NCBI GenBank assembly: GCA_903912445.1
Contig: CAIWHP010000084.1
Location: 3,621-67,620 of the forward strand
Source: an uncultured Lentisphaerota bacterium
GTDB lineage: Bacteria; Verrucomicrobiota; Kiritimatiellia; CAIQIC01
Reading direction: 5' to 3'
Length of the DNA: 64,000 nucleotides
The notes beneath the pieces were generated by a model. It saw nothing but the letters and a program-made list of their open reading frames with translations, was not told the origin of the DNA and made no database searches. Positions 4,321 through 25,500 of this stretch are shown here, piece by piece; position 1 is the first letter of the stretch; each line of letters opens with the position of its first letter. The position numbers and the translations under genes were made by a program.

Positions 4321-4331
4321 TCCTTCCCGTT

Positions 4332-6695: not shown

Positions 6696-6714
6696 GCCGA
6701 GTCGGAGACTCGGC
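6696..6714 (-). terminator. Stem-loop gccgagtc-gga-gactcggc (8-bp stem), candidate terminator or structured element downstream of GH78-like gene
   Basis: Perfect 8-bp inverted repeat with a 3-nt loop; no U tract. Confidence 0.3.
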
Positions 6715-6742
6715 CTACAATTCAATCAACCTCGCGCTGTAG

Positions 6743-6761
6743 GCCGGGTCTCCGACCCGGC
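6743..6761 (-). terminator. Stem-loop gccgggtc-tcc-gacccggc (8-bp stem), an inverted near-copy of the 6696 hairpin
   Basis: Perfect 8-bp inverted repeat; the a->g/t->c difference from hairpin 1 preserves base pairing; the loop is the complement of hairpin 1's loop. Confidence 0.3.
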
Positions 6762-6831
6762 GCACAACGCCCAAACTTCGATCGCTTGTACACGTGTGAA
6801 TTTGTCATGTGAGGATTTCGGCGTTGCAAGT

Positions 6832-9477: not shown

Positions 9478-9608
9478 GGAGCGCTCCTCATCTTCCCAAT
9501 GGTTTCGGCGGCAGGATTCTATCCGATGCCGATGGAAAGAGCCATGCCGCGCGAGCGCCGGCTAAGGGCTTGTTGCCAGCGGTGATAGACACCTGCTACA
9601 TTCGGTTC

Positions 9609-10652
9609 ATGAAAAAACACATCGCTCTCACAGTTGTAGCGGGTTGTTTGTTGGCCGCCACCGGCGCGCAGTCTGCGCCCCTGCCTCCGAGTCACTTCAT
9701 CGCGAACGTGCCCTGGCACACGCAGATCAACGGTCTGCTCTGCGGGGCAGGCTCCTTGAACATCGTTTTTGATTTCTGGGGTCCGGACCTCAGCCAGAAG
9801 GCCATCGCCGACGTGGCGCGCAGTTCCTCCATCGGCACCTGGTGTTACGACGTCCAGCGCGCGGGCCACTTCAGCCTCTTGAGCGCGGCTCAAGGCAACT
9901 TCTATCCCGCCGAGGCGCCGATCGCGGGCTTCCCGGAACGGCCGCTCGGCTACGCCTCCTTTGGGCACGCCGCGCCGACCATCTGGCTCAACGAACTCAA
10001 GGCGCTGATCGCGGCGGACATCCCCGTGATCATGCTGATGCATTATGCCCCGGACAGCACCAGCGGCGGCCACTACCGCGTCGCCATCGGCTACGACGAT
10101 GTGCAGGGCGTGATCTACTTCAGCGACCCGTGGGGCCGCGATCTGAAGTATCTGCCCGGCCTGACCGGCGTCATCGCGTGGACCTATGCCGAGGTGGCCA
10201 CCGGCTGGGACTACGTGGCCTACGGCACGCCGCAGCCGTTCTACGGCGTGGCGATCATGCCGTGGAAGGTGGACGTGCAGTCCAAGGGTAAACTGAAGGC
10301 CGGCTCCACCATCACCGTGACGGCCACGGTGAACTATCCGTGCCCGGCCCCGTTCAGCCCCATGCAATTCCCGGCGAGCGACGTCAGCGCGAGCATCGCA
10401 CTCCCCGCCGGCCTGACGCTGCTCGGCGCGCCTAACCTCGCGCTCGGCAACCTGGCCGCCGGCGCGGCCAGAACGGCCACTTGGCAGGTGCGCGTGGACC
10501 AGGTGCCCACCGCGGGCGCGGCGATCACCGTGCAGGCCGGCGGCGTGGTTTCGGGTTCCGTGCCGGAAGCGAACTGGGCCGGCCAGAGCCAGTCCTACCC
10601 GCCCTACAGCTACACCGACCTGATCGGCGGCACGGGTTCGCTCGCGTTCTGA
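9609..10652 (+). CDS. Secreted peptidase C39-like (papain-fold Cys/His) domain protein with C-terminal beta-sandwich domain
   Basis: ATG at 9609 (MKKHIALTVVAGCLLAATGAQSA). QINGLLCGAGSLNIVFDFWG (Cys) ... GGHYRVAIGYDD (His) ... DPWG. Confidence 0.55.
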   Translation: MKKHIALTVVAGCLLAATGAQSAPLPPSHFIANVPWHTQINGLLCGAGSLNIVFDFWGPDLSQKAIADVARSSSIGTWCYDVQRAGHFSLLSAAQGNFYPAEAPIAGFPERPLGYASFGHAAPTIWLNELKALIAADIPVIMLMHYAPDSTSGGHYRVAIGYDDVQGVIYFSDPWGRDLKYLPGLTGVIAWTYAEVATGWDYVAYGTPQPFYGVAIMPWKVDVQSKGKLKAGSTITVTATVNYPCPAPFSPMQFPASDVSASIALPAGLTLLGAPNLALGNLAAGAARTATWQVRVDQVPTAGAAITVQAGGVVSGSVPEANWAGQSQSYPPYSYTDLIGGTGSLAF

Positions 10653-10674
10653 TTCGCAACGCACGACAGTTGAC

Positions 10675-10706
10675 GAGGGGCGGCCAAGTGCCGCCCCTCA
10701 TTTTTT
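10675..10706 (+). terminator. Rho-independent terminator after the C39-like gene
   Basis: gaggggcggc-caagt-gccgcccctc (10-bp GC stem) followed by aTTTTTTgt. Confidence 0.75.
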
Positions 10707-10813
10707 GTCCCGTAGCTGCACTCGTCAGAGTGCGGCGAGCCCAACCCCGCGGAAGCGAAAGCTGATTTGTGAATGGGTGGGGTGGGCGATGGTTGCGCGT
10801 GCTTGGCGTTGCT

Positions 10814-11614
10814 TCAGTAGCCGCCAGCGCCGATGCCGCCGCCTTGGCCGGCGACCTGCTGTCCGGCTTTTTCCGCAGCCTCGCGGCGACGGTATTCGTC
10901 GAGCATCGCGGCCGTGGCGGTCGCGCCGCAGCGTGTGCCGCCGAGGTCGCGGACCTTGATGAGTCCATCGAGATCACGCACGCCCCCGGCAGCCTTGACC
11001 TGCACCTTGGGCGAACAGCTCGCGCGCATCAGCGCGAGGTCGTGTTCGGTCGCGCCCTTGTAGTTATAGCTGCCGTCGGCCTGCTTCACGAAGCCGTAAC
11101 CGGTCGAGGTCTTCACCCAGTCGGCGCCGGCCCGCTCGCAGAGCTGGCAGAGCTTGCGCTTGAAGTCGTCGCTGCCGAGGCCCGCTCCGCCCTTGGTAAG
11201 GTAATCGTTTTCAAAGATGACCTTCACCTGCGCGCTGTGCTTGTGGGCCTCGTCGCAAACGGCCTTCACATCGCGCTCCACGTAGTCCCAGTCGCCGCCA
11301 AGCGCCTTGCCGATGTTGATGACCATGTCGATTTCGACCGCGCCATCGCGGCAGGCGAGTTCGGTCTCGTAGCGTTTGGATTCGGTGCAGGAGTTGCCGT
11401 GCGGGAAGCCGATGACGCAGCCGACCTTGACGCCGGTGCCGCGCAACAGTTCGACCGCGCGCCGGGCTGCGTAGGGCTTGATGCAGACCGAGGCGACGCC
11501 GTACTGCGCCGCGACGCGGCAGCCTTCCTCGAGGTCCGCGTCCGTCATCGTCGGATGCAGCAGCGAGTGGTCAATCATCTTGGCGAGTTCTTCGTAGGTA
11601 TATTTCATGGTCAT
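10814..11614 (-). CDS. deoC: Deoxyribose-phosphate aldolase
   Basis: VCIKP, VIGFPHG, VKTSTGY motifs. ATG at 11614 overlaps the stop of the upstream gene (ATGA). Confidence 0.8.
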
Positions 11615-12525
11615 CCAAAATAGGGCGCGAGCACATGGCGGGCGACGCGGACGGCGGACTGGCGGCCGGCGAGCGTGCTGCCGAAGGTGCCGTCCTCGAC
11701 CTCGATGCACACCGGGCCGTCGTAGCCGACGTCCATCAGCGCGGCCATGAAGCGCGCCCAGTCAATGTCGCCGTAGCCGGGCAGGCGCGGCTGGTGCCAT
11801 TCGAGCGGCGTGGCGAAGATGCCGACATCGTTGATGCGCTCGCGGCGGATGCGGACATCCTTGGCGTGCAGGTGGAAGAGCTTGTCCTTGAATTCGCGCA
11901 ACGGCGAGAGCGGGTCCATGTGCTGGAGAATGAAATGCGACGGGTCATAGTTGAGGCCGAAGTGCTTGCTCGGGATGTCGCTGAAGGCGCGCCGCCAGAT
12001 GACGGGCGTGGTCAGCAGATTTTTCCCGCCGGGCCACTCGTCGCCGGTGAACAGCATCGGGCAGTTCTCGATGCCGATCTTGATGCCGTGGTCCGCGGCG
12101 AAAGCGATCAGCGGCTTCCACGTCTTGAGAAAGCGCGGCCAGTTGGCGTCCACCGATTTCGTCCAGTCGCGGCCGATGAACGTGTTGACGTTCTGCAGGC
12201 CGAGCAGCGCCGCGGCGCGGATGACCTTCTTGATGTGGTCGGTCGCCTTCTTCGCCGTCACCGGATCTGGGTCGAGGGCGTTCGGATAATAGCCGAGGCC
12301 GGACAGGCCGACGCCATAGCGGGCGCAGAGCGCGTTGACGTCGTCGGCCTGTGCCCGGGTGAAGCCGTTGACATCAATGTGGGTGATGCCGGCGTACTTG
12401 CGCTCGGCCTTGCCGACGGGCCAGCACATGACCTCGATGCACGCGAGGCGCTCGGCGGCGGCGAACTTCAGGACTTCCTCCAGCGACAGCTCCGGCAGAA
12501 TCGCGCTGACTAATCCCAGTTTCAT
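11611..12525 (-). CDS. Sugar phosphate isomerase/epimerase (xylose-isomerase-like TIM barrel)
   Basis: 304 aa; metal-binding residues in GIENCP / HLHAKD / IEVEDG pattern. Confidence 0.7.
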
Positions 12526-12566: not shown

Positions 12567-13534
12567 TCAACCTGGTTTCAGGCCACCGTGCCGGGCGAGG
12601 GCGATGCCGCCCAGCAGCCCGGCCTTGTCGCCGAGCGCGGAGCGCTCGATGCGGATAGCCTGCGTCGGGATCATCCCCACGCGGCGCTGGAGCGTTTCGC
12701 GCATCGGGCCGATCAGCAGCTCGCCCAGCTCGGCCACGCCGCCACCGAGGACAATCAGGTCCGGATGCAACGCCACCACCAGGTTGGCGGCGCCGATGCC
12801 GAGCCATTCGGCGGCGCGGCGGATGGCGGCGGCCACACCGGCATCGCCTGCGCGGGCGGCCGCGCCCATGGTTCTGGGCGAAACCTTTTCCACCTGGCCC
12901 TCGCACAGCTCGTGCAGCTTGGGCGCATTGCCGCTCAACAACAGGCGGACGCCCTCGGCGGTGATGGCCGGGCCGCTGGCCAGCGCTTCGAGACAGCCGC
13001 GGTTGCCGCAACCGCACAGGGGCCCGTCGGGCAAGATGGTTTGGTGTCCGATTTCGCCGGCTGCGCCCAGCGGGCCCAGCCGCAGTTGGCGCTCCACCAC
13101 GATGCCGCCGCCGATGCCCGTGCCGAGCGTGAAGAAGATCATGGTCTGCGCGTCGCGGCCGCTGCCGAAGGTCAGCTCGCCCAGCGCCGCGGCACGCGCG
13201 TCGTTGAGCAGGTAGACGGGATAACCGAGTTTCGGCTCCAGCGTCGCGCGCACCGGCACCTCGCGCCATTGCGTCGGCAGATTCGGCAGAAAGGTGGTGA
13301 CGCCGTTGGCAAGATCGGCCAGGCCTGGGACGCCCATGCCGAGCGCGACCGGCTGCACGCCGCTTTGCCGGGCCAGCCTGCCCAGCAGGGTCGCGATGCG
13401 CCCCAGCACGGCGGGCGGCCCTTCGTGCGAGAGCGTCGGTTCCTTGGCCTCGGCGATGATCCGGCCTGTTTCATCCGCGAGGGCGGCGCTGACGTTCGTG
13501 CCGCCGAGATCCACGCTGGCGAAGATGGACTTCA

Positions 13535-13535
<1 letters not shown>
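12567..13535 (-). CDS. ROK family sugar kinase
   Basis: ATG at 13535 (MKSIFASVDLGGTN). ROK zinc motif CGCGNRGCLE. Start overlaps the stop of the oxidoreductase gene (ATGA). Confidence 0.75.
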
Positions 13536-14671
<1,136 letters not shown>

Positions 14672-14684: not shown

Positions 14685-15464
14685 CTATTGCTTCCGGTTC
14701 AAATCCAACAGCACGCCCGCCGCCGGGCGCGCGGCCTGGATCGGCCCGAGGCGGTTGTGAAATTCGTAGGCGTCGCCGCGGTACAGCGTCAGCTCGCGCC
14801 AGAGCGGCACGCCGCCGCCGAGATAACCCACCGAGGTGACCAGCAGTCCGGCCGTCCCTTCGGCCACGCGCAGCAACCGCGCATCTTCGCCGCGGATCGC
14901 CACCGCGCGGATCACCTGGTCGGCGCCGGCGATCTTCAGCTTCAACTGCTCCGTCCACACGGCATACAGCGAACCCTTGACGGCGCTCTTGTTCAACCCG
15001 GCGCAGAAGTGCGCCACGATGTGGCGGCGTTCCACGATCACCGGCGTGCCGTCGGTCAGCCGCAGGCGCTCAAGATAGAAGAGTTCATCTTGCGGCTGAA
15101 TGCGCAGCGCGCCGAGCACCTCCGCGCCAGCCTGCGCGGCCCGCATCGTGGCGAAGCGCAGCACGCGCGTCGCGGGCTGCTTGCCGGCGGCCGCGGCCTT
15201 GTCGGTGAAGCTCACCAGCGCGGCGAGGTCATAGTCGAGCGCGCCGCCGCGTACGAACGTGCCGACGCCCTTCTTGAATTCCAGCACGCCCTCCGCGACG
15301 AGGTTGGAAACCGCCTTGTTGGCGGTGACGCGGCTGACGCCGAACCGCTCGCCGATCTCGCGCTCGGTGGGGAACTTGTCGCCCGCCTTGAACTCGCCGC
15401 CGCGGAGCAGCGCGCGCAGCTTGTCGTTGAGCTGGCTGTAAATCGGATGTTGGGTCCGGGTCAT
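14685..15464 (-). CDS. GntR family transcriptional regulator (HutC/NagR-like, HTH + UTRA domain)
   Basis: N-terminal KLRALLRGGEFKAGDKFPTEREIGERFGVSRVTANKAVSNLVAEGVL winged HTH; C-terminal UTRA-like domain. Confidence 0.75.
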   Translation of the reverse strand: MTRTQHPIYSQLNDKLRALLRGGEFKAGDKFPTEREIGERFGVSRVTANKAVSNLVAEGVLEFKKGVGTFVRGGALDYDLAALVSFTDKAAAAGKQPATRVLRFATMRAAQAGAEVLGALRIQPQDELFYLERLRLTDGTPVIVERRHIVAHFCAGLNKSAVKGSLYAVWTEQLKLKIAGADQVIRAVAIRGEDARLLRVAEGTAGLLVTSVGYLGGGVPLWRELTLYRGDAYEFHNRLGPIQAARPAAGVLLDLNRKQ

Positions 15465-15597
15465 GGTCGTGGCCTAGCCACGCGCAGTTGGTAGCATGGC
15501 CCGCGTTTGTCCGTCAAGCGCGCGGTTGACAGTTTTCCGCGGAAGAGCTACATACCGCGTGGCTATGCCACCTATCCCTGACAGCCCGGGTTGGCGT

Positions 15598-15705
15598 TTC
15601 CAAGGCTTGGAAAACATCCGCCGTATTTTTCCAAGGCTTGGAAGATTATCCGTGAAACGTTCCAAGCCCTGGAAAAACGCCGGCAATATTTTCCAATCCT
15701 TGGAA
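15598..15705. repeat. Palindromic element array R4 (4 copies, centres 15605, 15636, 15667, 15698)
   Basis: ttccaaggcttggaa x2, ttccaagccctggaa, ttccaatccttggaa; 31 bp phasing; lies in the divergent GntR/sulfatase intergenic region; the last copy overlaps the candidate TTG start of the sulfatase. Confidence 0.85.
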
Positions 15706-16992
15706 CCCCGCACCCTCGCACTCGCCGGTTTGCTGGCGTGGTCGGCGGCCGGGGCGGTGGAAAAGCCCAACATCATCCTCATCAACTGCGACGATCTCGG
15801 CTATGGCGACCTGGGCTGCTGCGGCGCGCAGGACATCCGCACGCCGCAGCTCGACCGCATGGCGGCGGAGGGCACCCGTCTCACCGATTTCTCGGTGACC
15901 TCGGCGCTCTGCACGCCGTCGCGCGCCGCGCTGATGACGGGAAAGTATCCGGGCCGCGTCGGTCTGGCGGCGGGCGTGCTGCGGCCGGATGCGACGAACG
16001 GGCTCGCGGGCTGCGAGGCGACGCTGGCGGAGGTTTTGAAGCCGGCGGGCTATGTGACGGGGTGCATCGGCAAGTGGCATCTCGGCTTCGTCCAAGGCAT
16101 GCGGCCAATGGACCAGGGCTTCGACAGCTACTACGGCGTGCTGCACAACCTGGACAAGTTTGAGACCATCTGCTTCGAGCAGGAGGGCGGCATGCCGGTC
16201 CTGCGCGGCAACGTGGTGGAAAAGCGCCCCGCGGTGCCGGCGGAGATGACCGGGCTGTATACGGCGGAGGCGCTGAAGTTCATCGAGGCCAACCGCGGGC
16301 GTCCGTTCTTCCTTTACCTTGGCCACGCCATGCCGCACCTTCCGTTCGATGCTTCGGCGAAGTTCAAAGGCAAATCCGGCCGCGGTCTCTTTGGCGACGT
16401 GGTGGAGGAACTCGACGACAGCACCGGCCAGATTCTCGACAAGCTGCGCGCGCTTGGCCTGGCGGAGAAGACGCTCGTCATTTTCACGAGCGACAACGGG
16501 CCGGAGCGCAACACGCCCGGCAGCGCGAAACCCTTCCATGGCGGGAAACACACTGTGTTTGAGGGCGGGCTGCGCATGCCGTGCCTCGTGTGGTGGCCCG
16601 GCCATGTGCCCGCCGGCCGCGTGTGCGATGAATTCATGGCCACACTCGATTTTTTGCCCACGTTCGCCCGGTTCGCCGGAACGCCGCTGCCTGCGCAGGT
16701 GGACGGCTTCGATCAGCTTGACGTCCTGCTCGGCCGTCCCGGCGCGAAATCGCCGCGCACCACGCTCTATTCGCTCTATGGCTTCGGCCAGCATCGTTTC
16801 GAGTCCATGCGCGAAGGCCGCTGGAAACTGCACCTCGGTGCGCCGCCCAAGCTCTTCGATCTCGGCAGCGACCTCGGCGAGGCCACCGATGTTGCCGCGC
16901 AGCATCCCGACGGTGTACAAAGGCTGCAGGCGCTCGCGGAGCATATCCGCGGGGAGCTCAAAGACCGTGCGCCAACAGGAGCAACACGATGA
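15700..16992 (+). CDS. Cys-type sulfatase (arylsulfatase family), secreted
   Basis: CTPSRAALMTGK formylglycine signature. Start uncertain: TTG 15700 (MEPRTLALAGLLAWSAAGA) or GTG 15652. The in-frame ATG at 15562 would place all four repeat copies inside the CDS and is rejected. Confidence 0.75.
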   Translation: MEPRTLALAGLLAWSAAGAVEKPNIILINCDDLGYGDLGCCGAQDIRTPQLDRMAAEGTRLTDFSVTSALCTPSRAALMTGKYPGRVGLAAGVLRPDATNGLAGCEATLAEVLKPAGYVTGCIGKWHLGFVQGMRPMDQGFDSYYGVLHNLDKFETICFEQEGGMPVLRGNVVEKRPAVPAEMTGLYTAEALKFIEANRGRPFFLYLGHAMPHLPFDASAKFKGKSGRGLFGDVVEELDDSTGQILDKLRALGLAEKTLVIFTSDNGPERNTPGSAKPFHGGKHTVFEGGLRMPCLVWWPGHVPAGRVCDEFMATLDFLPTFARFAGTPLPAQVDGFDQLDVLLGRPGAKSPRTTLYSLYGFGQHRFESMREGRWKLHLGAPPKLFDLGSDLGEATDVAAQHPDGVQRLQALAEHIRGELKDRAPTGATR

Positions 16993-19373
16993 GTGGCAGG
17001 ATGAAATTTTCGCGCCGTGAATTTCTGGCGGCCTCCGGGCTGGCGGCAGGCGGGCTGGTCATGTTCGGCCGGAGCCGCGTGGCCCTGGCGGCGGTGCAGA
17101 CGCCCAACGCCGACATGGCGGCGCTGCGGCAGGCGCTGCTGGACTCGCCGGTTGACGTCGCGTTGCATCGAGCCAAGATCTTCACGAAAGTCTTCCAGCA
17201 GCACGAGGCAGAGCCGTGGATCGTCCGGAAGGCGCTCGCGCTGCGCGAATATTTCGCGACCGTGCCGCTCTATCTGCGCGAGCACGATGGCTTCGCGGGC
17301 GCGATCAGCGAGACGCCGGGCGCGATGCCGCTGCTGGTCGAGCTGGGCATTGCGGAGAACAACATCTACACGAGCGAGCGCCCCGAGCGCGCGGGCTACC
17401 TTGCCGGGAAAGTACCGGACGACATCCAGGAGTATTGGCTCAATCGCAACATGTGGGGCCGGTATCGCACGGAAATTCTCGGCCAGCCGCCGGCCAAGAG
17501 CCGCGCCGAGCTGAAAGCCAATCCGGGCTACAAGTTCATTTCCAACCAAGGCCACCTCTGCCCCAGCTATGCGGGGCTGCTCCGCGTCGGCATCGGCGGG
17601 CTGCGGCAGAACATCGCGACGCGGCGGCAGGGCGAGGCCGACGCCGCGCAGCTCGCCTTCCTTACGGCGGCGGACCACACGCTCGCCGGCCTCTCCACGT
17701 GGGCGCAGCGCTACAGCGCATTCCTCGCGAAGGAAAAGCAGCAGGCCGAGATGGCGCGTATCTGCGCGAAGATTGCGACGCAGCCGCCGGAGACGTTCCG
17801 CGAGGCGCTACAGTTGATCTGGCTCGCGCACCAGGCGATCCACATCGAGGGTCACGGCTATTCCTGCACGCCCGACCGGCTCGACCAGTTGCTGCTGCCG
17901 TTCTACGAAGCGGATCGCAAGGCCGGCCGGCTCGATGATGCCGGCGTCATCCGGCTGACCGAAAACTTCGTGCTCAAGATGTTCGACAACACCTACTGGG
18001 GACCGGAGCACCATCTGACGCAGGGCTTCGTGGTCGGCGGCTCGACGCCCGACGGGCGCGACCTGACGAACCGCTTGAGCTGGCTGATGCTCGAAGGCGC
18101 GACGAACATGGCGCTGCCGGAACCGCTGGTCTGGGTCCGCTGGCATCCGGCGATCGATCAAAAGTTTTTCGACTTCTGCCTGACGCGGCTGACGCGCACC
18201 ACCTGTTTCCCGATGCTCTGGAACGACAAGGTCGTGCCGCAAGGCCTGATGAATCTCGGCGTCAGCCGCGAGGACGCGTTCAACTACACGCCCGTCGGTT
18301 GCAACGAGCTGGGCATCCCCGGCCAATTCTATTACAACCCCAACGCAAACGTCAGCTACCTTGCCGCGATCGAGGCGGCGCTGACGGGCGGCAAAGGTTA
18401 TCGGCAGCAGTGGAAGTGGTGGAAAATTGCGCCACCAGCGAGCGAACTGAAGACGTTCGACCAGTTCTCTGCCGCGGTCGGCGCCTATATCCGCAAGCAA
18501 CTCGAGCAATCCTACGCCGCCGACATGAAGGTGCTGCAGGCGCAGATGACGTGGGGCGTGACGCCGCTGACTTCCTGCTTCTTCCACGGCTGCATCGAGC
18601 GCGCCCGCGACATGGTGCAAGGCACCAAGTACAACATCCTATCCTGCGGCGGTATCGCCTTTGCCAATGCCGTGGACTGCATGGCCGCCGTGCGCGACGT
18701 GGTCTTTGAAAAGAAAGCGGCCACGCTCGACGAAGTGGCGACGGCCTGCACCGCGAACTTCCAGGGTCACGAACGGCTGCGTGCCAAGCTGTGCGCCGCG
18801 CCGAAGCATGGCAACGACGACCCACGCGTGGACGATATCATCAAGCTGGTCGAGCGCCTGCGGGACGAGCCGATGCAGGACATCTGCCGTGACCCACGCG
18901 ACGGAAGCAAGTTCGGCAACAGCCATGTCGTCCGCAGCGGCGCCGTGACGATGGGCCGCGGCACGCCCGCCACGCCCGACGGCCGCCTCGCCGGGACGCC
19001 GGTGGCCAATTCCGTCGCCGTCTCCGCCGGCTGCGAGCGCAGCGGCCCGACCGCCACGCTCAACTCCGTCTGCAAGCTCGATGCCGCCAAGAGCTGGCAG
19101 TGCGCCTACCAGGTCAACATCCGCTTCCACGCCGGCATGATCGCCGACGAGGGCCAGCGCGAAATACTGCGCGCGATGTTGAACGTCTATTTCCAGAACG
19201 GCGGGCAGGAGCTGCAGATCAACGTCGTGGATTCCGCCGCCCTGCGCGCGGCGCAGAAAAATCCGGAACAATATCGCGACCTCGTCGTCCGCGTCGCCGG
19301 CTTCAGCGAGTTCTTCGTGAACCTCACGCCGGAGATGCAGAACGAAGTCATCGCCCGCACGGAGCACATGTGA
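16989..19373 (+). CDS. Glycyl radical enzyme (pyruvate formate-lyase superfamily; specificity unknown) with N-terminal twin-arginine-like signal peptide
   Basis: ATG 16989 overlaps the sulfatase TGA. N-terminus MSGRMKFSRREFLAASGLAAGGLVMFGRSRVALAA. Glycyl-radical motif RVAGFSEFF near the C-terminus. Cys-loop VGCNELGIP. Confidence 0.8.
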   Translation: MSGRMKFSRREFLAASGLAAGGLVMFGRSRVALAAVQTPNADMAALRQALLDSPVDVALHRAKIFTKVFQQHEAEPWIVRKALALREYFATVPLYLREHDGFAGAISETPGAMPLLVELGIAENNIYTSERPERAGYLAGKVPDDIQEYWLNRNMWGRYRTEILGQPPAKSRAELKANPGYKFISNQGHLCPSYAGLLRVGIGGLRQNIATRRQGEADAAQLAFLTAADHTLAGLSTWAQRYSAFLAKEKQQAEMARICAKIATQPPETFREALQLIWLAHQAIHIEGHGYSCTPDRLDQLLLPFYEADRKAGRLDDAGVIRLTENFVLKMFDNTYWGPEHHLTQGFVVGGSTPDGRDLTNRLSWLMLEGATNMALPEPLVWVRWHPAIDQKFFDFCLTRLTRTTCFPMLWNDKVVPQGLMNLGVSREDAFNYTPVGCNELGIPGQFYYNPNANVSYLAAIEAALTGGKGYRQQWKWWKIAPPASELKTFDQFSAAVGAYIRKQLEQSYAADMKVLQAQMTWGVTPLTSCFFHGCIERARDMVQGTKYNILSCGGIAFANAVDCMAAVRDVVFEKKAATLDEVATACTANFQGHERLRAKLCAAPKHGNDDPRVDDIIKLVERLRDEPMQDICRDPRDGSKFGNSHVVRSGAVTMGRGTPATPDGRLAGTPVANSVAVSAGCERSGPTATLNSVCKLDAAKSWQCAYQVNIRFHAGMIADEGQREILRAMLNVYFQNGGQELQINVVDSAALRAAQKNPEQYRDLVVRVAGFSEFFVNLTPEMQNEVIARTEHM

Positions 19374-20275
19374 GCACCGGACGCGTCTTTGATATCCAGC
19401 GGTTCTCGATCCACGACGGGCCGGGCATCCGCACCACAGTGTTTCTCAAGGGCTGTCCGCTGCGCTGCCTCTGGTGCAGCAACCCGGAGAGCATTGACCC
19501 CAAGCCGCAGCTCTCATTCATGGCCGAAAAATGCATCGCGTGTGGCGCGTGCTATGCGGTCTGCAAGCCGGGCGCGCTGGCGAAGGGCACCGACGGCAAG
19601 GCGCAGCTCGACCGCGCGCGCTGCACGAACTGCGGCGACTGCGCGGGTATCTGCGACGCGCAGGCGCTGGAGCTGGTCGGCCGCGACCTGCGCGCCGGCG
19701 AGGTGCTCGAGGTGGTGCTGCGCGACCGCGACTACTACGTCCAATCCGGAGGCGGCCTTACGCTCTCCGGCGGCGAGCCGCTGCTGCAGCCGGAATTTGT
19801 CGAGGAGCTGCTCCTCGCCGCGCGCAGCCAGGGCTTGCACTGCTGCGTCGAGACCGCCGGTTACGCCGGCTGGGAAGTTTTTGACCGGCTCAAGCGCGGC
19901 GTGGACCTGTGGCTCTTCGACTACAAGGAGAGCGATCCCAGCCTGCACGCCAAATTTACCGGCCGCGAACGCGAAACCATCGTCGCGCGTTTGCAGCAGC
20001 TCCACGACAGCGGCGCGAAAATTCTGCTGCGCTGCCCGATGATTCCGCAGTGCAACACGCGGACGGAACATCTCGACGGCATCGCCGCGCTCGCCCGCCA
20101 GCTGCCGCAGCTCGTCGGCGTGGAACTGCTGCCTTACTTCGACCTCTGGCGCGCCAAGCTCAAACGCTTCGGCCTGACCACCGCGCTGCCCGACACCGTC
20201 AAGCCGCCCTCGCGCGAACAGCTTAAGGGCTGGAGCGATTATCTCCGCACCCGCGGCGTCCGCCTCATCGGCTGA
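19370..20275 (+). CDS. Glycyl-radical-enzyme activating enzyme (radical SAM, with ferredoxin-like insert)
   Basis: GTG 19370 overlaps the GRE stop. CPLRCLWC (CxxxCxxC) plus CIACGACYAVC and CTNCGDCAGIC clusters. No signal peptide. Confidence 0.85.
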   Translation: MSTGRVFDIQRFSIHDGPGIRTTVFLKGCPLRCLWCSNPESIDPKPQLSFMAEKCIACGACYAVCKPGALAKGTDGKAQLDRARCTNCGDCAGICDAQALELVGRDLRAGEVLEVVLRDRDYYVQSGGGLTLSGGEPLLQPEFVEELLLAARSQGLHCCVETAGYAGWEVFDRLKRGVDLWLFDYKESDPSLHAKFTGRERETIVARLQQLHDSGAKILLRCPMIPQCNTRTEHLDGIAALARQLPQLVGVELLPYFDLWRAKLKRFGLTTALPDTVKPPSREQLKGWSDYLRTRGVRLIG

Positions 20276-20285: not shown

Positions 20286-20380
20286 TTCCAAGGCTTGGGC
20301 CTATTCCTCCGGTAATTCCACGACGGGGAGAAATTCCAATGTTCGGGGAAAGTACCGGTTTGCTTTTACAGCCCTTGGAA
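20286..20380. repeat. Palindromic element array R5 (clear copies centred 20293 and 20373; degenerate copies between)
   Basis: ttccaaggcttgggc ... ttacagcccttggaa. Confidence 0.6.
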
Positions 20381-20477: not shown

Positions 20478-22325
20478 ATGTTGTTCAGGCGCTCCAGGGC
20501 TGCGGGCCGCTGCGCACGAGGCCTCTGCCTGGCGGGGTTGTTCGCTGTCACACAGGCGGGCGCCGCGCCGCCGGCCGGGCCACCGCTGACGCGGGCGGAG
20601 CTGGCGCGCGTGACCGCGGGCGCCATCGCCAGCGGCGAGTTCGCCAAGCACCTCGAGTTCCTCGACAACCTGATCCTGAACACCTGCAAGCCGGCGCCGG
20701 GCGCCGCTGGCATCACCGCCTGGGAGCGCGTCCTGGCCGATGAGGCCGCGACGCTGGCCATCGCCCAGTCGGCCGTGCTGCATCAGGTTACACCGGACAC
20801 GCTGGCGGCCCTCGTGAAAGTGGAGACCAACCTGCCAGCCTTCCTCGGCTGGTTCCTGGGCGAACGCGATGCGCTGGAAACCTATCTCAAAACGATCAAG
20901 CCGCAGAACGAGCCGGCGAGGGTCTTGCCGCTGTGGTGCGCGCTCTGGGGCAAGGACCGCGCCGACGGCGCCCGGTATCTCAACCTGGCGCTCGCCTGCG
21001 CGGTGGTGTTCGACAAGCCGCTGCGCGTGTCGCGCGACCTCGATCCGCGCGGCGCGGTGGATGCGGGCGAGCGCTACGATTACTACCGGAATGCCGACAA
21101 GCAGAACCAGCTGAAGACCGACCTGACCAAGCTGCCGGCGTCGGAATTGATCTGGGTCGTGGATGCGCCGGTGCCGACCTCGGAGCTGACGTGGGCGCTC
21201 ACCAACGTCCGCCGCCTGGTCCGCGACCACTGGGGGCGCGCCTATTTCATGGTGGAATACAAGATGGCGAAGATCGCGCAGGGCGGCCAGTTCTACGAGC
21301 ACTACACGCTGGCAGAGATCCTCCAGAAGGGCGGTGTCTGCGCCGACCAGGCCTATTTCGCCTCCATGACAGCCAAGGCCCACGGCATCCCGGCGATCAT
21401 GCTCCTCGGCGAGGGCCAGCGCGGCGGCCACGCGTGGTTCGCCTTCAAGACGACGACGAAGTGGAACATGAAGAACGGCCGCTACCCGAACGACCAGTAT
21501 GTGGCGGGCTACACGACCGACCCGCAGACGCGGCTCTGGCTCAAGGACCACCTGCTCAATTTCCTCACCGACAGCCAGCGGCAGACGCAGGAGTACGGCA
21601 AGGTCAGCCGCCTCACCTGGCTGGCGGGCCTCCTGCTCGCGCGCGGGCAGCAGGCTGAGGCGGGCGCCCTGTACGAGCTGGCCCTCGCATCCGGCCCGCG
21701 GCACATGGCCGCCTGGGCGGCCTATTTCGACTATCTCAAGCAAACCGAGGCGCCCCGCGAACGCTGGAAGACGGTCGTCCAAACCGCGCGCTTCAACTTC
21801 CGGGACTATCCCGACATGCTGACCCGGCTCGACAAGCTGGAGACGGAGACCGTCCTTGACGCGGACAACGTGGACGCCATCCTGAAATCGCTGCGGAACC
21901 AGGTGCGCAAGCTGGAGGTGCGCAGCAAGGAGCGTAGCGACCTGATCATCGAGACGCTGGAGCGCCACATCAAACTCCTGCGCGCGGCCGACGGTACCAC
22001 GGCGGTGCTGACCATCTACGACAAGGCGCTCAGGGAGTTCGGCGACGAGGTCCCTGTCTACGAAGGCCTGTCCGTGCGCTATTTCAAATACGCGCAGGAG
22101 CACAAGGCGCAGAAGAAGGCGCTCGATACGATCGAGGCGGTGTTCCGGAAAAACTTCAGCGCCACCACGCGCGATTTTTTCGAGATGAACACACACGCGC
22201 GCCTGATGAACAGGATTGCGAGCTTTTACCAGGCTGACGGGCAAGCCCAGAAGGCCGCCGCCTACCAGAAGAAAGCCGCCGATCTCGAAAAGCGCGCCAC
22301 CGTCACCCACAAGAACGACCGCTGA
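20478..22325 (+). CDS. Secreted transglutaminase-like cysteine protease superfamily protein with C-terminal helical/TPR-like region
   Basis: GGVCADQAYFASMTAKAHGIP ... GGHAWFAF (Cys...His core of the transglutaminase-like fold); N-terminal signal. Confidence 0.55.
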   Translation: MLFRRSRAAGRCARGLCLAGLFAVTQAGAAPPAGPPLTRAELARVTAGAIASGEFAKHLEFLDNLILNTCKPAPGAAGITAWERVLADEAATLAIAQSAVLHQVTPDTLAALVKVETNLPAFLGWFLGERDALETYLKTIKPQNEPARVLPLWCALWGKDRADGARYLNLALACAVVFDKPLRVSRDLDPRGAVDAGERYDYYRNADKQNQLKTDLTKLPASELIWVVDAPVPTSELTWALTNVRRLVRDHWGRAYFMVEYKMAKIAQGGQFYEHYTLAEILQKGGVCADQAYFASMTAKAHGIPAIMLLGEGQRGGHAWFAFKTTTKWNMKNGRYPNDQYVAGYTTDPQTRLWLKDHLLNFLTDSQRQTQEYGKVSRLTWLAGLLLARGQQAEAGALYELALASGPRHMAAWAAYFDYLKQTEAPRERWKTVVQTARFNFRDYPDMLTRLDKLETETVLDADNVDAILKSLRNQVRKLEVRSKERSDLIIETLERHIKLLRAADGTTAVLTIYDKALREFGDEVPVYEGLSVRYFKYAQEHKAQKKALDTIEAVFRKNFSATTRDFFEMNTHARLMNRIASFYQADGQAQKAAAYQKKAADLEKRATVTHKNDR

Positions 22326-22540
22326 CCAGTAGCCGCCACAGCGGTACCCGACCTGGGAAATAATACCGCCCGCTTTCCCTTCGCTTGGCAAAAGCGCTTG
22401 GTTCAATTCCAAACCATGGAGCTCACCTGCAGCGGCCCCGCATAGGCTGCGCAGGGTGTTGTTTGCGCTGCAGCAATCCAAGCCTAAGTAGCCGCTTGAC
22501 AGAGTGACAGAAACTTAATATTGGCATGGTAGGAGTTGCT

Positions 22541-25500
22541 ATGAAGTTGATTTTTACCTGTTCTTCCTGCGGTACGGAGCTGGAGAGTGGTGGCGCGGCG
22601 ATGGGCTCCAAAGTTACGTGTCCAAAGTGTCAGAAAGAGATCGCAATCCCCCGCAGTGACTTTGGCACCGGTACGCAGATTGCCGGCTTTGAGATCATCC
22701 GCAAGCTGGGGGACGGAGGGATGGGCGCGGTCTATCTCGCCAAACAACTGTCCATGAGCCGCGAGGTCGCGCTCAAAGTGCTTTCCGCCGAGTTTGCCGC
22801 CGCCGAGGGCGCGGTGCCGCGCTTTCTCCAGGAAGTCCATGTGGCCGCCAAACTGGAGCACCCCAACATCGTCACCGCCTTCGACGCCGGCGAGGACGAG
22901 GGCCTCTATTACATGGCCATGAGTTATATCCGCGGCCAGTCGCTCGACGAGCAGCTCCACAAAAAGGGCACCTTGACCGAGAAGGCCGCCCTGCAACTCA
23001 TCCGCAAGATGGCCGGCGCCCTGAACTACGCCTGGCAGCACCACAAGATCATCCATCGCGACATCAAGCCGGCGAATATCCTGCTCGACGACGAGGGCGT
23101 GCCGAAGCTGGCGGACATGGGCCTGTCCAAGAGCGTGGAGGAGGAGGAGGCGCTGACGCTGTCCGGCGAGGTGATGGGCACGCCCAACTACATGAGCCCG
23201 GAACAGATCGAGGGCCGCAGCGATGTGGATGCGCGCGCTGATATGTATGCGCTGGGCGCCACGCTCTACCACATCCTGACCGGCCACATGCCCTTTGCCG
23301 GCAGCAGCATTCTGGAGGTGTTGCGCAAGCAGGCCATCGCGGAGCTGCCGGACCCGCGCGGCTATTATCCTGCGCTCTCCGAACATTGCGTCAGCCTCCT
23401 CGGGATCATGCTGGCGAAAAAACGCGAGGAGCGCCCGGCCGATTGGCCGGCGATGCTCGCCGATATCGATGCGGTATTGCACAGCCGGCCACCCGTCACC
23501 AAGGTGCCTCCCGCGGGGCACTCGGCGCTGATCCGGCGCGGGCATGGGCCCCAGCCCGGGAAAAAAGTCGTCCTGTCACAAACCGGTCCGCTCTCGGCCA
23601 AGCCGCTGGCCATGCCCAGTCCGGCGCCGCCGGTCGCCGCCCGGCCCAAGCTCTCGGGCCAAGCCGCCCGTTGGATCGGGGTGGGCGTGCTGGCCGTGGG
23701 CCTGGTCAGCGTCGGCATCGCGGCGGCGGTCATGGTGGGCAACAAGCGCGCGGAAGCCGAGCGCAGCCGCGCCCGTGCGACGGCGCAAAAGGCGGCGGCG
23801 GCCCAAGCGCAGGCCGAACAGGCCAAGCGGGAAAAAGGCCAGGCGGAATTCTGGCAGGTGGCCGAGGATTTTGCCCGGTCCCACCCGCAGGCCTTCGCGC
23901 AGGCCATCGGCAACTTTACGGAAGTCCAGCAGCGGTTGGCCGGGACGAAATATGCCTTGCTGGCCAAGCATGAAATCGAGCGGCTGCAAGCCGCCAAGAA
24001 CGAGGCGATGACGCAGGCGTTCGCCGAACTGACCGACCGCGCGCAAGCGCTGGCCGCACGCCAGGATTTCACTGGCGCGGCGGACGTGCTTGCCAACTAC
24101 CAAGGGCCCTTCGCGGCCGAACTGAAGGCGTTGCGCAGCGGTCCGGCGGGCAAATACCGGAAGCTGGCGGCGGCCGCCGCCGCCCAGCTGACGCAAGCCG
24201 AACGCGACCAGCGCGAGCGCTGGCAGAACGCGCTGAATGCGGCGGCCGATGCGATCATGGCCGGTGAGCTGGCCAAGGCGCGGAGCCTATGCCTGACCAC
24301 CGCCAGCGACGCCACGCTGACCGGCGACAAGGCGGCCTTCCAGCGCATCGCCGGCTGGCTGGACCAGCTGGCCGGCGTGGATAAGCTCCTGCTCGAATCG
24401 TTTGTGGCGCAGAAGGACAAGGAGCTGGATCTGCCGCTCGATGGCGCGAAGACGCGTCTGCGCATCGCCGGCGTGCGCGGCGAGCGCATCCAGATCGAGC
24501 GTCCGAAAGGCATCGGCTGGATCGGCGGCGCCTTCACGCTCGCGCAGCTGCCGTTGGAGGAAAAACAGGCGCGGCTGACCGGGAAGCTCGACCCCGCGGC
24601 GCTCGCACTCTGGGCCGGCCTGGCCCTGCTCAAGGCCCACCAGCCCGAGCGGGCCGCCGAACAGTTCAAGGGCGCCGGGGAACTCGCCACCCTGCTGCAG
24701 GGAAAAATCGAGGCCGCGCAGAAGGAACTGCTGTCGCGCGCGTTGACCGCGCTGCCGCCGGAGGAACAGGTGCGCCGCGTCCTGGCCGAGCTGAAGGCGC
24801 TCAATGCCGGCTTTGACGGGCGCGCAGCGCACAAGTGCGAAGCCGGCCAGGTGACCGAGCTGGCGCTCGCCGCCGACGCGCTCACGGACCTCACGCCGAT
24901 CAGCAGTCTGAAAGCCCTGCGCCGTTTAACGTGCAGCGGGGCCGTCGCGGGCAAGCGCAGCCCGCTGGCCAATCTGACGCCGCTGGCCGGCCTGCCGCTG
25001 ACGGCGCTTTGTGTGAGCAACACCGCTGTCGCGGACCTGGCGCCGCTCAAAGGCGTGCCCCTGACCATGCTCATGTGCGATGGGACACCGCTCAACGATC
25101 TCGCTCCGCTGACCGGCATGAAGCTGGTCGCGCTCTGTTGCAACAACACCTCCATCCGCGACCTGGGTCCGTTGGAGGGTATGGCGCTGCTCACGTTTGG
25201 CTGTGTTAACACCGAGGTGGAGGACCTCGCCCCGCTCAGGAACATGCCGCTGCAGAGCCTCAAGTGCGATGCCTCCCTCGCCTTGCAGCAGGCCGCCCTG
25301 TTGCGCGAGTGGCGGACGCTGACGACCTTGAACGACACGCCCATCGCGAGCTTTTGGACGCGGATGGCCGGCCAAGGGTCCTCCGCCAAGACGGAGGGCG
25401 GGCGGCCGCTCACGCGCGAGAAAAGCCCCGGCCACGTGACTTTTAACCTCTACCCGGGCGGCTACGTCGCGAAAATTCCCTTCGACTATAAAGAGCGACC

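Follow-up and report, generated by a model that had tools for sequence, protein, structure and literature searches.

The window, the whole 64,000-nucleotide stretch of DNA that was analysed, contains at 15652–20275 a three-gene operon encoding a Sec-type sulfatase, a 794-residue glycyl radical enzyme (GRE) and the activase of this enzyme. The features of this operon and of the divergent operon beside it are as follows.

10814–11608, reverse strand: DeoC-type (deoxyribose-phosphate) aldolase, without signal peptide; last gene of the divergent operon
11611–12525, reverse strand: xylose-isomerase-like TIM-barrel enzyme (AP_endonuc_2; Pfam PF01261, 2.6e-38), without signal peptide
12567–13553, reverse strand: ROK-family sugar kinase, glucokinase-like (Pfam ROK, 2.1e-66), without signal peptide
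13535–14671, reverse strand: Gfo/Idh/MocA NAD(P) oxidoreductase (Pfam GFO_IDH_MocA and C-terminal domains), without signal peptide
14685–15464, reverse strand: GntR/HutC-type regulator with a GntR helix-turn-helix and a UTRA domain (Pfam UTRA 2.3e-31, GntR 3.2e-19); a GRE neighbour in 12 loci
15598–15705, no strand assigned: four copies of the palindrome TTCCAAGGCTTGGAA, period 31 nt, reaching from the divergent intergenic region into the annotated 5′ end of the sulfatase gene
15700–16992, forward strand: S1-type sulfatase with a short Sec-type signal peptide and a CTPSR formylglycine motif; alternative GTG start at 15652
16989–17093, forward strand: predicted twin-arginine signal peptide of the GRE, residues 1–35, comprising an n-region, S8-R9-R10-E-F-L13, the uncharged stretch F12–G27, basic R28 and R30, and A32-L-A-A35
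16989–19373, forward strand: GRE, 794 residues, PFL-like barrel and glycyl radical domain
17553–17555, 18300–18302, 18306–18308 and 19299–19301, forward strand: GRE catalytic residues His189, Cys438, Glu440 and Gly771, respectively
19370–20275, forward strand: GRE-activating radical SAM enzyme with CPLRCLWC and two ferredoxin-like cluster motifs, without signal peptide

The three genes had been described, from the sequence alone, as a translationally coupled unit, and both junctions bear out the coupling. The sulfatase open reading frame ends at 16992 and the GRE ATG lies at 16989, which gives an ATGA overlap, and the GRE TGA (19371–19373) overlaps the activase GTG (19370–19372) as GTGA. An AGGAG sequence is located at 16977–16981, 7 nt 5′ of the GRE ATG. 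The unit is, however, larger than three genes, as a divergent, tightly packed operon running from 15464 down to 10814 and encoding the GntR, Gfo/Idh/MocA, ROK, TIM-barrel and DeoC proteins also belongs to it. The two divergent operons probably share the GntR/HutC protein as their regulator. A promoter and terminator scan gave no signal above shuffled expectation.

The sulfatase matches Pfam Sulfatase (PF00884, 1.4e-57) and SGSH_C, and reaches no curated equivalog cutoff. Its formylglycine motif (LCTPSR) conforms to the C-x-P-x-R pattern of S1 sulfatases and Sec-like N-termini are present in the window protein and its orthologs, in agreement with what had been read from the sequence. The activase exceeds the TIGR02494 cutoff (318.7 bits versus 174) and matches Pfam Radical_SAM, Fer4_12 and Fer4; the absence of a signal peptide that had been noted for it extends to its orthologs, none of which has an N-terminal extension. 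In the divergent operon, the aldolase scores 186.4 bits against TIGR00126 deoC (cutoff 117.3), the kinase 220 bits against TIGR00744 (cutoff 260) and the Gfo/Idh/MocA protein a full-length but sub-threshold 191.9 bits against its best match, levoglucosan dehydrogenase (NF052479, cutoff 650). Assignment of a substrate from curated models was rejected, given that the GRE, sulfatase, kinase and dehydrogenase all fall under their equivalog cutoffs and that DeoC alone passes.

The GRE is composed of a PFL-like domain (PF02901, 1.6e-113) and a Gly_radical domain (PF01228, 1e-22), and Foldseek returned TM scores of 0.76–0.79 to many GRE structures, with 0.78 to GDH, CutC, PD and YbiW. Gly771 lies in RVAGFS, which fits the pattern RVxG[FWY], and R[VI]AGFS is present in 119 of 120 homologs. 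Cys438 aligns with Cys433 of GDH, within a VGCNEL loop that is found in 117 of the 120; in one homolog (P0013), the catalytic Cys is replaced by Arg. The sequence-only reading had remarked that this loop departs from the common GCVE. The mismatch is real (GCNE), but the remark understated the fact that the functional CXE motif of eliminases and isomerases is intact as C438-N-E440, in which Glu440 is invariant across a 32-sequence alignment. This motif is the definition of GRE eliminases and isomerases (PMC13450708). Judged by alignment, the GRE has the full eliminase/isomerase catalytic set: Gly771 (RVAGFS), Cys438 and Glu440 (CXE), and His189. The AlphaFold model of the enzyme rests on a shallow family alignment, and an active-site reading from it was rejected, as its catalytic loops (188–190, 289–292, 336–344 and 763–779) have pLDDT below 50.

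By profile scores, the GRE matches no characterised GRE. Its best family match, TIGR01774 (the PFL2/glycerol dehydratase subfamily), reaches 425.7 bits, under the cutoff of 678.2, and scores against the NCBIfam equivalogs (HpsG, HpfG, CutC, HypD, PflD-type, indoleacetate/HPA decarboxylases and PFL) range from 100 to 308 bits, with cutoffs of 994–1150. The best solved matches are the 1,2-eliminases GDH (DhaB1, PDB 1r8w; E 2.6e-95, TM 0.78) and 1,2-propanediol dehydratase (PD; 5i2g). These enzymes share with the window GRE the Gly loop, the CXE Cys loop and a His aligned to GDH His164, and the window activase, which has two extra ferredoxin-like clusters, belongs to the same type as theirs. However, identity is only ~26–30%, the catalytic Cys is followed by Asn in the window GRE and by Val in GDH and PD, and both of the latter, which reside in the cytoplasm or in microcompartments, lack a signal peptide. 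Among the residues that we take to bind glycerol in 1r8w (His164, His281, Ser282, Tyr339 and Asp447), His164 and Ser282 are kept as His189 and Ser292, whereas His281, Tyr339 and Asp447 align with Tyr291, Thr344 and Pro451.

Similarity to the CXE-loop sugar GREs YbiW and PflD (PDB 8id7, 8id0 and 8yjo) is comparable to that to GDH, at 297 and 271 bits, and their equivalog cutoff is unmet (NF007437, 303 versus 1109). YbiW and PflD are the C–O lyases of ‘anhydroglycolysis’, in which a downstream aldolase splits the deoxy-keto sugar that they produce (PMC13450708). That aldolase belongs to the FSA family, whereas the window locus encodes a DeoC-family enzyme; moreover, YbiW and PflD are cytoplasmic and act on 6-phosphorylated substrates, which would be impossible for a periplasmic enzyme. 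The second-best NCBIfam match is HpsG (NF048011, 307.9 bits; cutoffs 1000), which with HpfG and IslA/IseG constitutes a group of GRE eliminases linked to organosulfur metabolism. These enzymes cleave sulfonate C–S bonds in the cytoplasm, whereas the sulfur link at the window locus is a sulfate-ester hydrolase that is present in a subset of loci.

The feature that sets the window GRE apart is its N-terminus, MSGRMKFSRREFLAASGLAAGGLVMFGRSRVALAA. GRE profiles and all solved GREs align from residue ~41–56 onwards, and in the AlphaFold model residues 1–33 have pLDDT of 25–49 and the fold begins near residue 41. The extension that had been recognized ahead of the GRE-aligning region, which measures ~35 residues, therefore lies outside the GRE fold. 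It fits the S/T-R-R-x-F-L-K consensus with S8-R-R-E-F-L13 and has an h-region, a basic c-region and a small-x-small site, as claimed for a canonical twin-arginine (Tat) signal, with an uncharged Ala/Gly-rich stretch of ~15 residues followed by the basic c-region and A-L-A-A. The extension is retained in orthologs: R9 and R10 are invariant in the 32-sequence alignment (67–92% identity), 116 of 120 homologs have an N-terminal RR motif, the other four being apparently N-truncated, and the motif is present at nearly every full-length locus drawn from genome assemblies. In 109 scorable homologs (66–100% identity, at least four phyla), [ST]RRxFL occurs in about 90, with the RR at a median position of 9. 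Relative to RR, 104 of these sequences have S or T at −1, 104 have F at +2 and 98 have L at +3. The uncharged stretch that follows RR has a median length of 16 residues, 46% Ala + Gly and a mean hydropathy of 1.39, and ends in K or R in 87 of the 109. The sequence flanking the motif drifts among homologs in the manner of signal peptides.

Profile models of Tat signals gave a divided result. TIGR01409 (TAT_signal_seq) accepts the GRE at 17.9 bits against a cutoff of 16.7, whereas Pfam TAT_signal (PF10518) does not (16.3 versus 22.7); when TIGR01409 was applied to six orthologs, two were above the cutoff and four were under it. Searches by tblastn with Escherichia coli TatA and TatC returned only noise in the 64-kb window and ~80 fetched loci. 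Tat systems have been reported for Verrucomicrobia, Acidobacteria and Kiritimatiella genomes, which constitutes support at the level of phyla only (PMC3827258; PMC5148204). On this sequence evidence, the GRE N-terminus is judged to be a genuine, selectively maintained twin-arginine signal peptide, from which export itself is inferred.

The GREs that bear this signal form a monophyletic clade with members in Verrucomicrobiota, Planctomycetota, Lentisphaerota, Kiritimatiellales and Acidobacteriota, and every carrier found is a metagenome-assembled genome. The sister group consists of the signal-less proteins P0124 (57%), P0123 (47%) and P0126 (43%). Among 150 representatives of other GRE clusters, N-terminal RR signals appear only in the window's clade and one other, which argues that the signal did not arise by chance. 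Pattern matches to RR in P0124 and P0136 were discarded as false positives, because the RR there sits in an ALRRAI motif of the mature region. The other signal-bearing group, clade B, comprises distant GREs (30% identity) with a GCEE loop, about half of which carry RR signals; the signal therefore arose at least twice. The closest signal-less relatives, of an Armatimonadetes type, are 54–60% identical and have the same GCNE Cys loop and the same gene neighbourhood, and the GREs at three Armatimonadetes loci (L049, L055 and L061) have no signal.

The neighbourhood is itself conserved. The order GntR–GfoIdh–TIM–DeoC–GRE–activase is found in at least ten loci from several phyla, and the same partner genes are present at L075, L076 and L077. 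The activase gene adjoins the GRE gene in most loci. The most constant neighbour is DeoC, which adjoins or is near the GRE gene in 18 loci; the window copy is 86% identical to the ortholog at L003. The TIM-barrel gene is a neighbour in 18 loci and the Gfo/Idh/MocA gene is present in 19; all copies of the former open with MKLGFVSAIL and all copies of the latter begin at the Rossmann motif. The ROK kinase recurs at L003, L017, L038, L050, L075 and L076. Sulfatase orthologs (65–81% identity) adjoin the GRE gene in about ten loci, and a sulfatase gene is found at only a subset of GRE loci. TonB-dependent-receptor-like outer-membrane genes directly adjoin the GRE gene in the Acidobacteria loci L034, L038 and L070, and one lies 3 nt upstream of the gene for the clade-B protein P0196. 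No conserved inner-membrane transporter gene was found in the PVC operons examined. RR signals are also present on Gfo/Idh/MocA proteins (cluster 8) encoded by the same contigs. The conserved partners of the GRE (DeoC, Gfo/Idh/MocA, TIM barrel and ROK) are suggestive of a sugar pathway that has not been described.

The earlier proposal that the GRE is exported by Tat is supported by these sequence data, with both export and activation before export remaining inferences. Neither of the two refuting conditions examined came out against it: orthologs do not lack the extension, and Tat models accept the peptide in part. In the model that we favour, with moderate confidence, the locus is a sugar-catabolic cluster in which a pre-activated GRE is exported by Tat beside a Sec-dependent sulfatase and cytoplasmic enzymes finish the pathway. 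The GRE would fold, and probably dimerize, in the cytoplasm, where the activase would install the glycyl radical using S-adenosylmethionine and a reduced Fe–S cluster. The Tat translocon, a carrier of folded proteins, would then export the activated enzyme, and signal peptidase would cut after A-L-A-A35. In an anoxic periplasm, the GRE may perform radical C–O cleavage or dehydration of a non-phosphorylated sugar, which the adjacent sulfatase would desulfate before or after the GRE step. The deoxy-keto product would be imported, and the ROK kinase, Gfo/Idh/MocA dehydrogenase, TIM-barrel enzyme and DeoC-type aldolase would complete the route, which would thus be a periplasm-initiated analogue of the YbiW/PflD-plus-aldolase route. 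The GREs of the sister lineages are cytoplasmic in the same operon, so relocation makes sense only if the GRE catalyses the first step, on a substrate that carries no phosphate. The stronger claim that Tat carries a live glycyl radical, for periplasmic C–O cleavage of desulfated glycan sugars or glycosides by the first extracytoplasmic GRE, evolved at least twice (clade A, GCNE; clade B, GCEE), seems to us evenly poised between true and false.

A periplasmic site fits the coupling of the GRE to a signal-bearing sulfatase, the outer-membrane receptor neighbours and the sole Armatimonadetes operon seen (L076), in which sulfatase and GRE both lack signals. A general statement that the two proteins lose their signals together was not upheld: it would rest on L076 only, a single case that is weak because its sulfatase, only 28% identical to that of the window, belongs to a different subfamily and the contig is frameshifted. 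Counting against the export model are the predicted cytoplasmic location of all the tightly linked partners (DeoC, TIM barrel, GfoIdh and ROK), the exposure to oxygen of an exported GRE that could not be re-activated, the want of a conserved inner-membrane transporter in the PVC operons, the sub-threshold Tat-model scores given above, and the lack of any experimental localisation. The first of these objections leads to the alternative that the GRE stays in the cytoplasm and uses its RR peptide for chaperone binding or quality control, regulated retention or membrane recruitment, or is exported only as an inactive form. The activase and every pathway partner are cytoplasmic, sister enzymes with the same Cys loop act in the cytoplasm within the same operon, the presumed product has no conserved importer, and vestigial Tat-like leaders are known on cytoplasm-facing enzymes such as NarG. 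Vestigial leaders decay, though, yet the RR, F and L here are essentially invariant in at least four phyla, with the h-region, basic c-region and A-x-A features all preserved; signal-less lineages have lost, or never had, the entire extension, and no degraded copy was seen. Neither the window nor ~80 loci contain a TorD/NarJ-like Tat chaperone gene, and the co-occurring exported sulfatases and outer-membrane receptors fit export. We therefore regard retention in the cytoplasm as unlikely, while continuing to take it seriously.

If the signal does function in export, it might remain uncleaved and serve, as in Rieske proteins, as an N-terminal membrane anchor that tethers the GRE to the inner membrane, on its periplasmic side. 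Some ortholog N-termini score similarly against Rieske/UCR Tat-anchor models and the generic Tat model (PF10399 reaches 25.5 bits against a 24-bit cutoff in one ortholog), and the small-x-small site varies across orthologs. Most sequences nonetheless have an Ala-rich c-region and an A-x-A-like site, separated from the first helix by a linker rich in Pro and Thr, and a stable anchor would be expected to be longer and more hydrophobic than the uncharged stretch described above; this makes an anchored GRE decidedly unlikely. Far less probable is that the extension is an annotation artefact and that translation begins at the internal ATG at 17115 (Met43), an outcome that the sequence-only reading had named as one of its refutations. 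Met43 does lie just ahead of the region that aligns with other GREs, but the 42 upstream codons are conserved as protein, with an invariant RR, in more than 100 homologs, and the AGGAG and the overlap with the sulfatase stop belong to the ATG at 16989. Moreover, Met43 cannot be a general start, because a Met is found there in only 57 of 115 orthologs, and 49 of the 115 lack any Met within the 26 residues preceding the first conserved helix. Targeting to a bacterial microcompartment would have precedent, as GRE-associated microcompartments use N-terminal extensions (encapsulation peptides) and PVC bacteria have microcompartments. A tblastn search with PduA, however, found no BMC shell homolog in the window or in ~80 loci, and the motif is a Tat consensus with a cleavage-type c-region and not an amphipathic helix, such that this last explanation is scarcely credible.

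With export still an inference from sequence, the preferred reading suggests that radical sugar chemistry is sent to the periplasm beside a sulfatase. Tat-exported cofactor enzymes, such as the glucose–fructose oxidoreductase of Zymomonas (the namesake of the Gfo/Idh/MocA family), TorA and [NiFe] hydrogenases, have the same consensus signal as the GRE; they acquire their catalytic equipment in the cytoplasm and are then exported folded. Unlike in these enzymes, the ‘cofactor’ of the GRE would be a protein glycyl radical that a radical SAM activase has introduced, and no dedicated Tat chaperone gene was seen in the window or in ~80 loci. To our knowledge, no glycyl-radical Tat cargo has been described, and GREs have been treated as strictly intracellular, whether in the cytoplasm or in microcompartments. 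A search of the full-text literature found no paper on an exported GRE, and in a comprehensive review of June 2026 the periplasm, signal peptides, Tat and export are all absent. If the model is correct, radical enzymology would reach, with a Tat-exported GRE, as far as the cell envelope, the cargoes of Tat would be joined by a new kind, a protein radical installed after translation, and the question would arise of how a radical that is not renewable outside the cytoplasm is kept alive. Planctomycetes, Verrucomicrobia and Acidobacteria are major degraders of sulfated polysaccharides, and this large and sharply delimited family could explain the oxygen-free attack of their anaerobic members on recalcitrant, often sulfated, sugars. 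The export hypothesis is directly testable, because signal-less natural controls exist in the same operon context.

The start of the sulfatase gene and the repeat array upstream of the operon bear on one another. The GTG at 15652 had been taken as the sulfatase start; the TTG at 15700 (MEPRTLALAGLLAWSAAGA/VEKP) is more likely, because the signals of the orthologs are short and of the TTG-15700 type and because copies 3 and 4 of the palindrome (15660–15674 and 15691–15705) fall within the 15652 reading. The four-copy array noted upstream of the operon is real, with copies beginning at 15598, 15629, 15660 and 15691, but it is not private to the operon, because 14 or more intergenic sites dispersed over the window carry the palindrome (61 matches versus 1.07 expected). 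This dispersal, together with the restriction of the palindrome elsewhere to the closest relatives (L003 and L075), rules out the array as the GntR operator.

Three successive ORFs on the plus strand, at 15496–20275 of the window, encode a sulfatase, a glycyl radical enzyme (GRE) and a GRE-activating radical SAM enzyme (activase). As the sequence-only reading had proposed, the three are translationally coupled, with ATGA at 16989–16992 joining the sulfatase to the GRE and GTGA at 19370–19373 joining the GRE to the activase; the GRE start codon is preceded by AGGAG at a spacing of 7 nt. The three-gene operon is thus confirmed, but the unit is larger than had been described, as a tightly packed minus-strand operon diverges from the sulfatase.

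Genes of the two divergent operons
10814–11608, minus strand: DeoC aldolase (TIGR00126, 186 bits, above cutoff)
11611–12525, minus strand: xylose-isomerase-like TIM barrel
12567–13553, minus strand: ROK kinase
13535–14671, minus strand: Gfo/Idh/MocA oxidoreductase (best match levoglucosan dehydrogenase, sub-threshold)
14685–15464, minus strand: GntR/HutC regulator
within 15496–16992, plus strand: sulfatase (Pfam Sulfatase, 1.4e-57; motif LCTPSR)
16989–19373, plus strand: GRE, 794 aa (PFL-like, 1.6e-113, and Gly_radical, 1e-22, domains)
19370–20275, plus strand: activase, 301 aa (TIGR02494, 318.7 bits, cutoff 174; CPLRCLWC plus two ferredoxin-like cluster motifs)

The GRE begins with MSGRMKFSRREFLAASGLAAGGLVMFGRSRVALAAVQTP, an N-terminus that had been taken for a twin-arginine (Tat) signal preceding the region alignable with other GREs. 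Its placement is borne out: curated GRE profiles and all solved GREs align only from residues 41–56, and in the AlphaFold model (32 family members) residues 1–33 have pLDDT values of 25–49, with the fold beginning near residue 41. A search of 5.8 billion proteins listed at least 120 GRE homologs (66–100% identity), from metagenome-assembled genomes of Verrucomicrobia and Planctomycetes. The orthologs keep the extension, with an N-terminal RR motif in 116 of the 120 listed homologs; the other four look truncated. All 32 members of an alignment spanning 67–92% identity have both R9 and R10. Among 109 scorable sequences, [ST]-R-R-x-F-L is present in 89, with the RR at a median position of 9. An uncharged stretch comes next, with a median length of 16 residues, an Ala+Gly content of 46% and a mean hydropathy of 1.39; in 87 of the 109 it ends at a Lys or Arg. 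Between these landmarks the residues drift freely, in the manner of a signal peptide. To judge from sequence, these are the textbook features of a Tat signal. The profile models accept the window peptide only in part: TIGR01409 scores 17.9 bits (cutoff 16.7), but Pfam TAT_signal reaches 16.3 against a cutoff of 22.7.

A one-genome-per-species scan recovered 72 GRE loci from Verrucomicrobiota, Planctomycetota, Lentisphaerae, Kiritimatiellales, Acidobacteria (Bryobacteraceae and Solibacteraceae) and Armatimonadetes. The RR extension is encoded in nearly all full-length loci, the exceptions being three Armatimonadetes loci (54–60% identity). The activase had been described as lacking a signal, and its orthologs, approximately 50 in number, are all without an extension at the N-terminus. 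Tat systems have been reported for the carrier groups at the phylum level only (PMC3827258, PMC5148204). We consider it probable that the GRE peptide is a genuine Tat signal, with the reservations that there are no localisation data and no cultured carrier, and that tatA and tatC are unverified in this genome.

Searched exhaustively with HMMER, 1.84 billion cluster representatives delimit the family sharply, to a single cluster at 50% identity (P0121, 65%) and some fragments. The next-nearest GREs in that search are P0124 (57%), P0123 (47%), P0126 (43%) and P0130 (37%), and all others lie at about 30–36%. Neighbour joining places the Tat-bearing GREs in one monophyletic clade, whose sisters are the signal-less P0124, P0123 and P0126. 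Among the 150 best GRE representatives, N-terminal RR signals occur in only one further clade, typified by P0196 (30% identity to the window GRE; Cys loop GCEE[PL]; RVGGFS; N-terminus MKGAIPRREFLYGAVAAPCALAA) and drawn from Planctomycetota, Verrucomicrobia and Kiritimatiellales. RRxF[LI] signals are found in about half of 33 close P0196 members, and the remainder begin at the mature region. Because part of this distant clade also carries them, RR signals must have been added to GREs at least twice. Members of this clade lie at 8001–10298 in both L073 and L074; P0196 itself begins 3 nt past a CarboxypepD_reg/OMP beta-barrel (TonB-dependent-receptor-like) gene, and the 8 kb around it contain no activase.

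In superposition, the GRE model reaches a TM of about 0.78 with glycerol dehydratase, CutC, propanediol dehydratase and YbiW. Gly771 (RVAGFS) is conserved in 119 and Cys438 (VGCNEL) in 117 of the 120 listed homologs, and Glu440 and the His aligned with His164 of glycerol dehydratase are invariant in the 32-sequence alignment. At the positions that we take to bind glycerol in glycerol dehydratase (1r8w), the alignment places Tyr for His281, Thr for Tyr339 and Pro for Asp447. The GRE approached no characterised GRE equivalog (100–308 bits against cutoffs of about 1000) and missed the PFL2/GDH subfamily cutoff (425.7 against 678.2). Given these missed cutoffs and differing positions, no substrate can be assigned. 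The Cys loop had been said not to match the common GCVE; it does read GCNE, but the CXE motif, which defines GRE eliminases and isomerases (PMC13450708, a 2026 review), is intact. In one 81% homolog (P0013, locus L005), Arg replaces the catalytic Cys (VGRNEL); this could be an inactive paralog, or an error made in sequencing or assembly.

Recurrent partners of the GRE were identified by de novo clustering of the neighbours in the 72 loci. The activase accompanies the GRE in most of them, followed by Gfo/Idh/MocA (19), TIM barrel (18), DeoC (18), GntR (12) and ROK (several) genes. An orthologous sulfatase (65–81% identity) adjoins the GRE in about 10 of the 72, and other sulfatases lie near it in many more. 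Genes in the co-directional order GntR–GfoIdh–TIM–DeoC–GRE–activase(–sulfatases) turn up repeatedly in Verrucomicrobia, Lentisphaerae, Kiritimatiellales and Planctomycetes, and a 92% ortholog on a 1.13-Mb contig has a layout identical to that of the window. Every GfoIdh and TIM-barrel copy begins directly at its catalytic domain, without a signal, and the PVC operons share no conserved importer. At P0196 and in Acidobacteria loci, the GRE has a TonB-dependent-receptor-like outer-membrane gene as its immediate neighbour, an arrangement compatible with a periplasmic step after outer-membrane uptake. Paired GRE genes lie close together in several Acidobacteria and Planctomycetes loci (L041, 10001–15762; L022, 2721–8016; L059; and L034). 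In L034, the GREs at 1243–3483 and 10001–12340 each stand behind a TonB-dependent-receptor-like gene, with sulfatases in between.

The signal-less sister GREs have the same gene neighbourhood as the Tat-bearing clade. The P0124 locus (GCNEL loop; L076, 1238–10274) reads sulfatase–TIM–GfoIdh–TIM/ROK fusion–DeoC–GRE, and its sulfatase starts MPNSRPNIIF, without a signal. The P0123 operon (L077, 1–18328) comprises a GH-like gene, an ABC sugar importer, DeoR, a DeoC that overlaps the GRE start, the GRE, two TIM barrels, three GfoIdh, a KDPG-type aldolase, a PfkB kinase and a second GRE. Both resemble wholly cytoplasmic forms of one and the same pathway, as yet undescribed. Since the neighbourhood is shared, this pathway seemingly exists in two forms, one all-cytoplasmic and one in which the GRE, and the sulfatase where present, bear export signals. 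That sulfatase and GRE both lack signals in the P0124 locus lends export weak support only, because this sulfatase is 28% identical to that of the window and the contig is frameshifted.

These observations suggest a scheme in which the motifs and how well they are conserved, the translational coupling and the shared gene order were seen directly, and the remaining steps are inferred. Tat exports folded proteins. The GRE would fold in the cytoplasm and have its Gly771 radical installed there by the coupled, signal-less activase, a location inferred from the need of the activase for S-adenosylmethionine and reductant. Tat would then move the pre-activated enzyme to the periplasm, with cleavage of the signal after A-L-A-A35. 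There, Cys438 and Glu440 might carry out a 1,2-elimination or ring-opening C–O cleavage of a non-phosphorylated sugar desulfated by the Sec-exported sulfatase; this specific chemistry is a guess. The deoxy-keto product would be imported and processed by the ROK kinase, GfoIdh, TIM barrel and DeoC aldolase, in parallel to the 'anhydroglycolysis' route of YbiW/PflD plus an aldolase (PMC13450708). A GRE eliminase is chemically suited to an anoxic periplasm because it needs no diffusible cofactor once activated, and the homolog sources (deep lake water, groundwater, anaerobic bioreactors and sediments, from record titles) fit such a setting.

A mis-called GRE start is contradicted by the AGGAG before the ATG, the ATGA overlap and the conserved RR; the internal Met43 is matched by Met in only 57 of 115 orthologs, and in 49 of the 115 the 26 residues before it lack Met entirely, making Met43 implausible as a general start. 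Retention of the GRE in the cytoplasm, with another role for the peptide, would sit well with two weak points of a periplasmic location, namely that all conserved partners are cytoplasmic and that a conserved importer is missing from the PVC operons; we know of no means by which the GRE, once exported, could be re-activated. Retention is contradicted by the family-wide maintenance of the Tat features, by an extension that is cleanly present or absent among lineages and by the absence of a TorD-like gene from the window and about 80 loci. The peptide might instead target a microcompartment, but no shell genes were found in the same set. A further rival retains Tat and leaves the signal uncleaved, as a membrane anchor holding the GRE on the periplasmic face. 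With export inferred, and in the absence of localisation data or a cultured carrier, we lean only slightly towards a GRE that acts in the periplasm. GRE plus activase, Tat signal and sulfatase are each of a known kind; their combination and the implied compartment are new. Full-text searches found no literature on exported GREs, and a June 2026 GRE review does not contain the words periplasm, signal peptide, twin-arginine, secret-, export or sulfatase.

The four-copy repeat noticed upstream of the operon is real but not private to it: the same palindrome occurs at at least 14 intergenic window sites (22–68, 4332–4408, 6531–6609, 15598–15705, 20286–20380, 29572–29618, 30795–30841, 34297–34311, 40439–40485, 50442–50519, 52004–52082, 55623–55668, 58352–58391 and 62421–62435). 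It is a 7-1-7 palindrome, TTCCAAGGCTTGGAA, in arrays of 2–4 copies with a period of 31–32 nt, almost always intergenic or in 5′ regions, and yields 61 window matches against 1.07 expected (up to 3 mismatches). Beyond the window it was found only in the two closest relatives, L003 and L075, and in none of 73 other loci; it is a lineage-specific dispersed repeat. Translated, it gives spurious 'FQGLE/FPRLGK' N-termini on several ORFs. Because the sulfatase start formerly placed at 15652 is overlapped by repeat copies 3 and 4, TTG 15700 is preferred as the more likely true start.

The window is a glycan-degradation neighbourhood, with GH115 alpha-glucuronidase-like, GH78-like rhamnosidase, GH5-like and NPCBM plus alpha-galactosidase genes at 4840–9477 (minus strand) and 33158–36810. 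At 970–4356 (minus strand) lies a gene for a 1128-aa exported protein whose middle domain is HZS_alpha and whose C-terminus is an FGE-sulfatase (SUMF1-like) domain. The gene immediately upstream of the L026 GRE encodes a protein 50% identical to it, and a gene within the L004 cluster one that is 47% identical; 9 of the 72 loci contain relatives, and the protein may be functionally tied to the sulfatase/GRE module. After the activase, the 92% ortholog locus has a 52-aa ORF and a rhodanese-domain gene (L075, 13290–13836), where the window instead has, at 20478–22325, an unannotated 615-aa signal-bearing protein without a Pfam match. Immediately downstream of the cluster, 22526–27184 (plus strand) encodes a 1552-aa Ser/Thr protein kinase that has a zinc-ribbon-like segment at its N-terminus, together with a transmembrane region and leucine-rich repeats.
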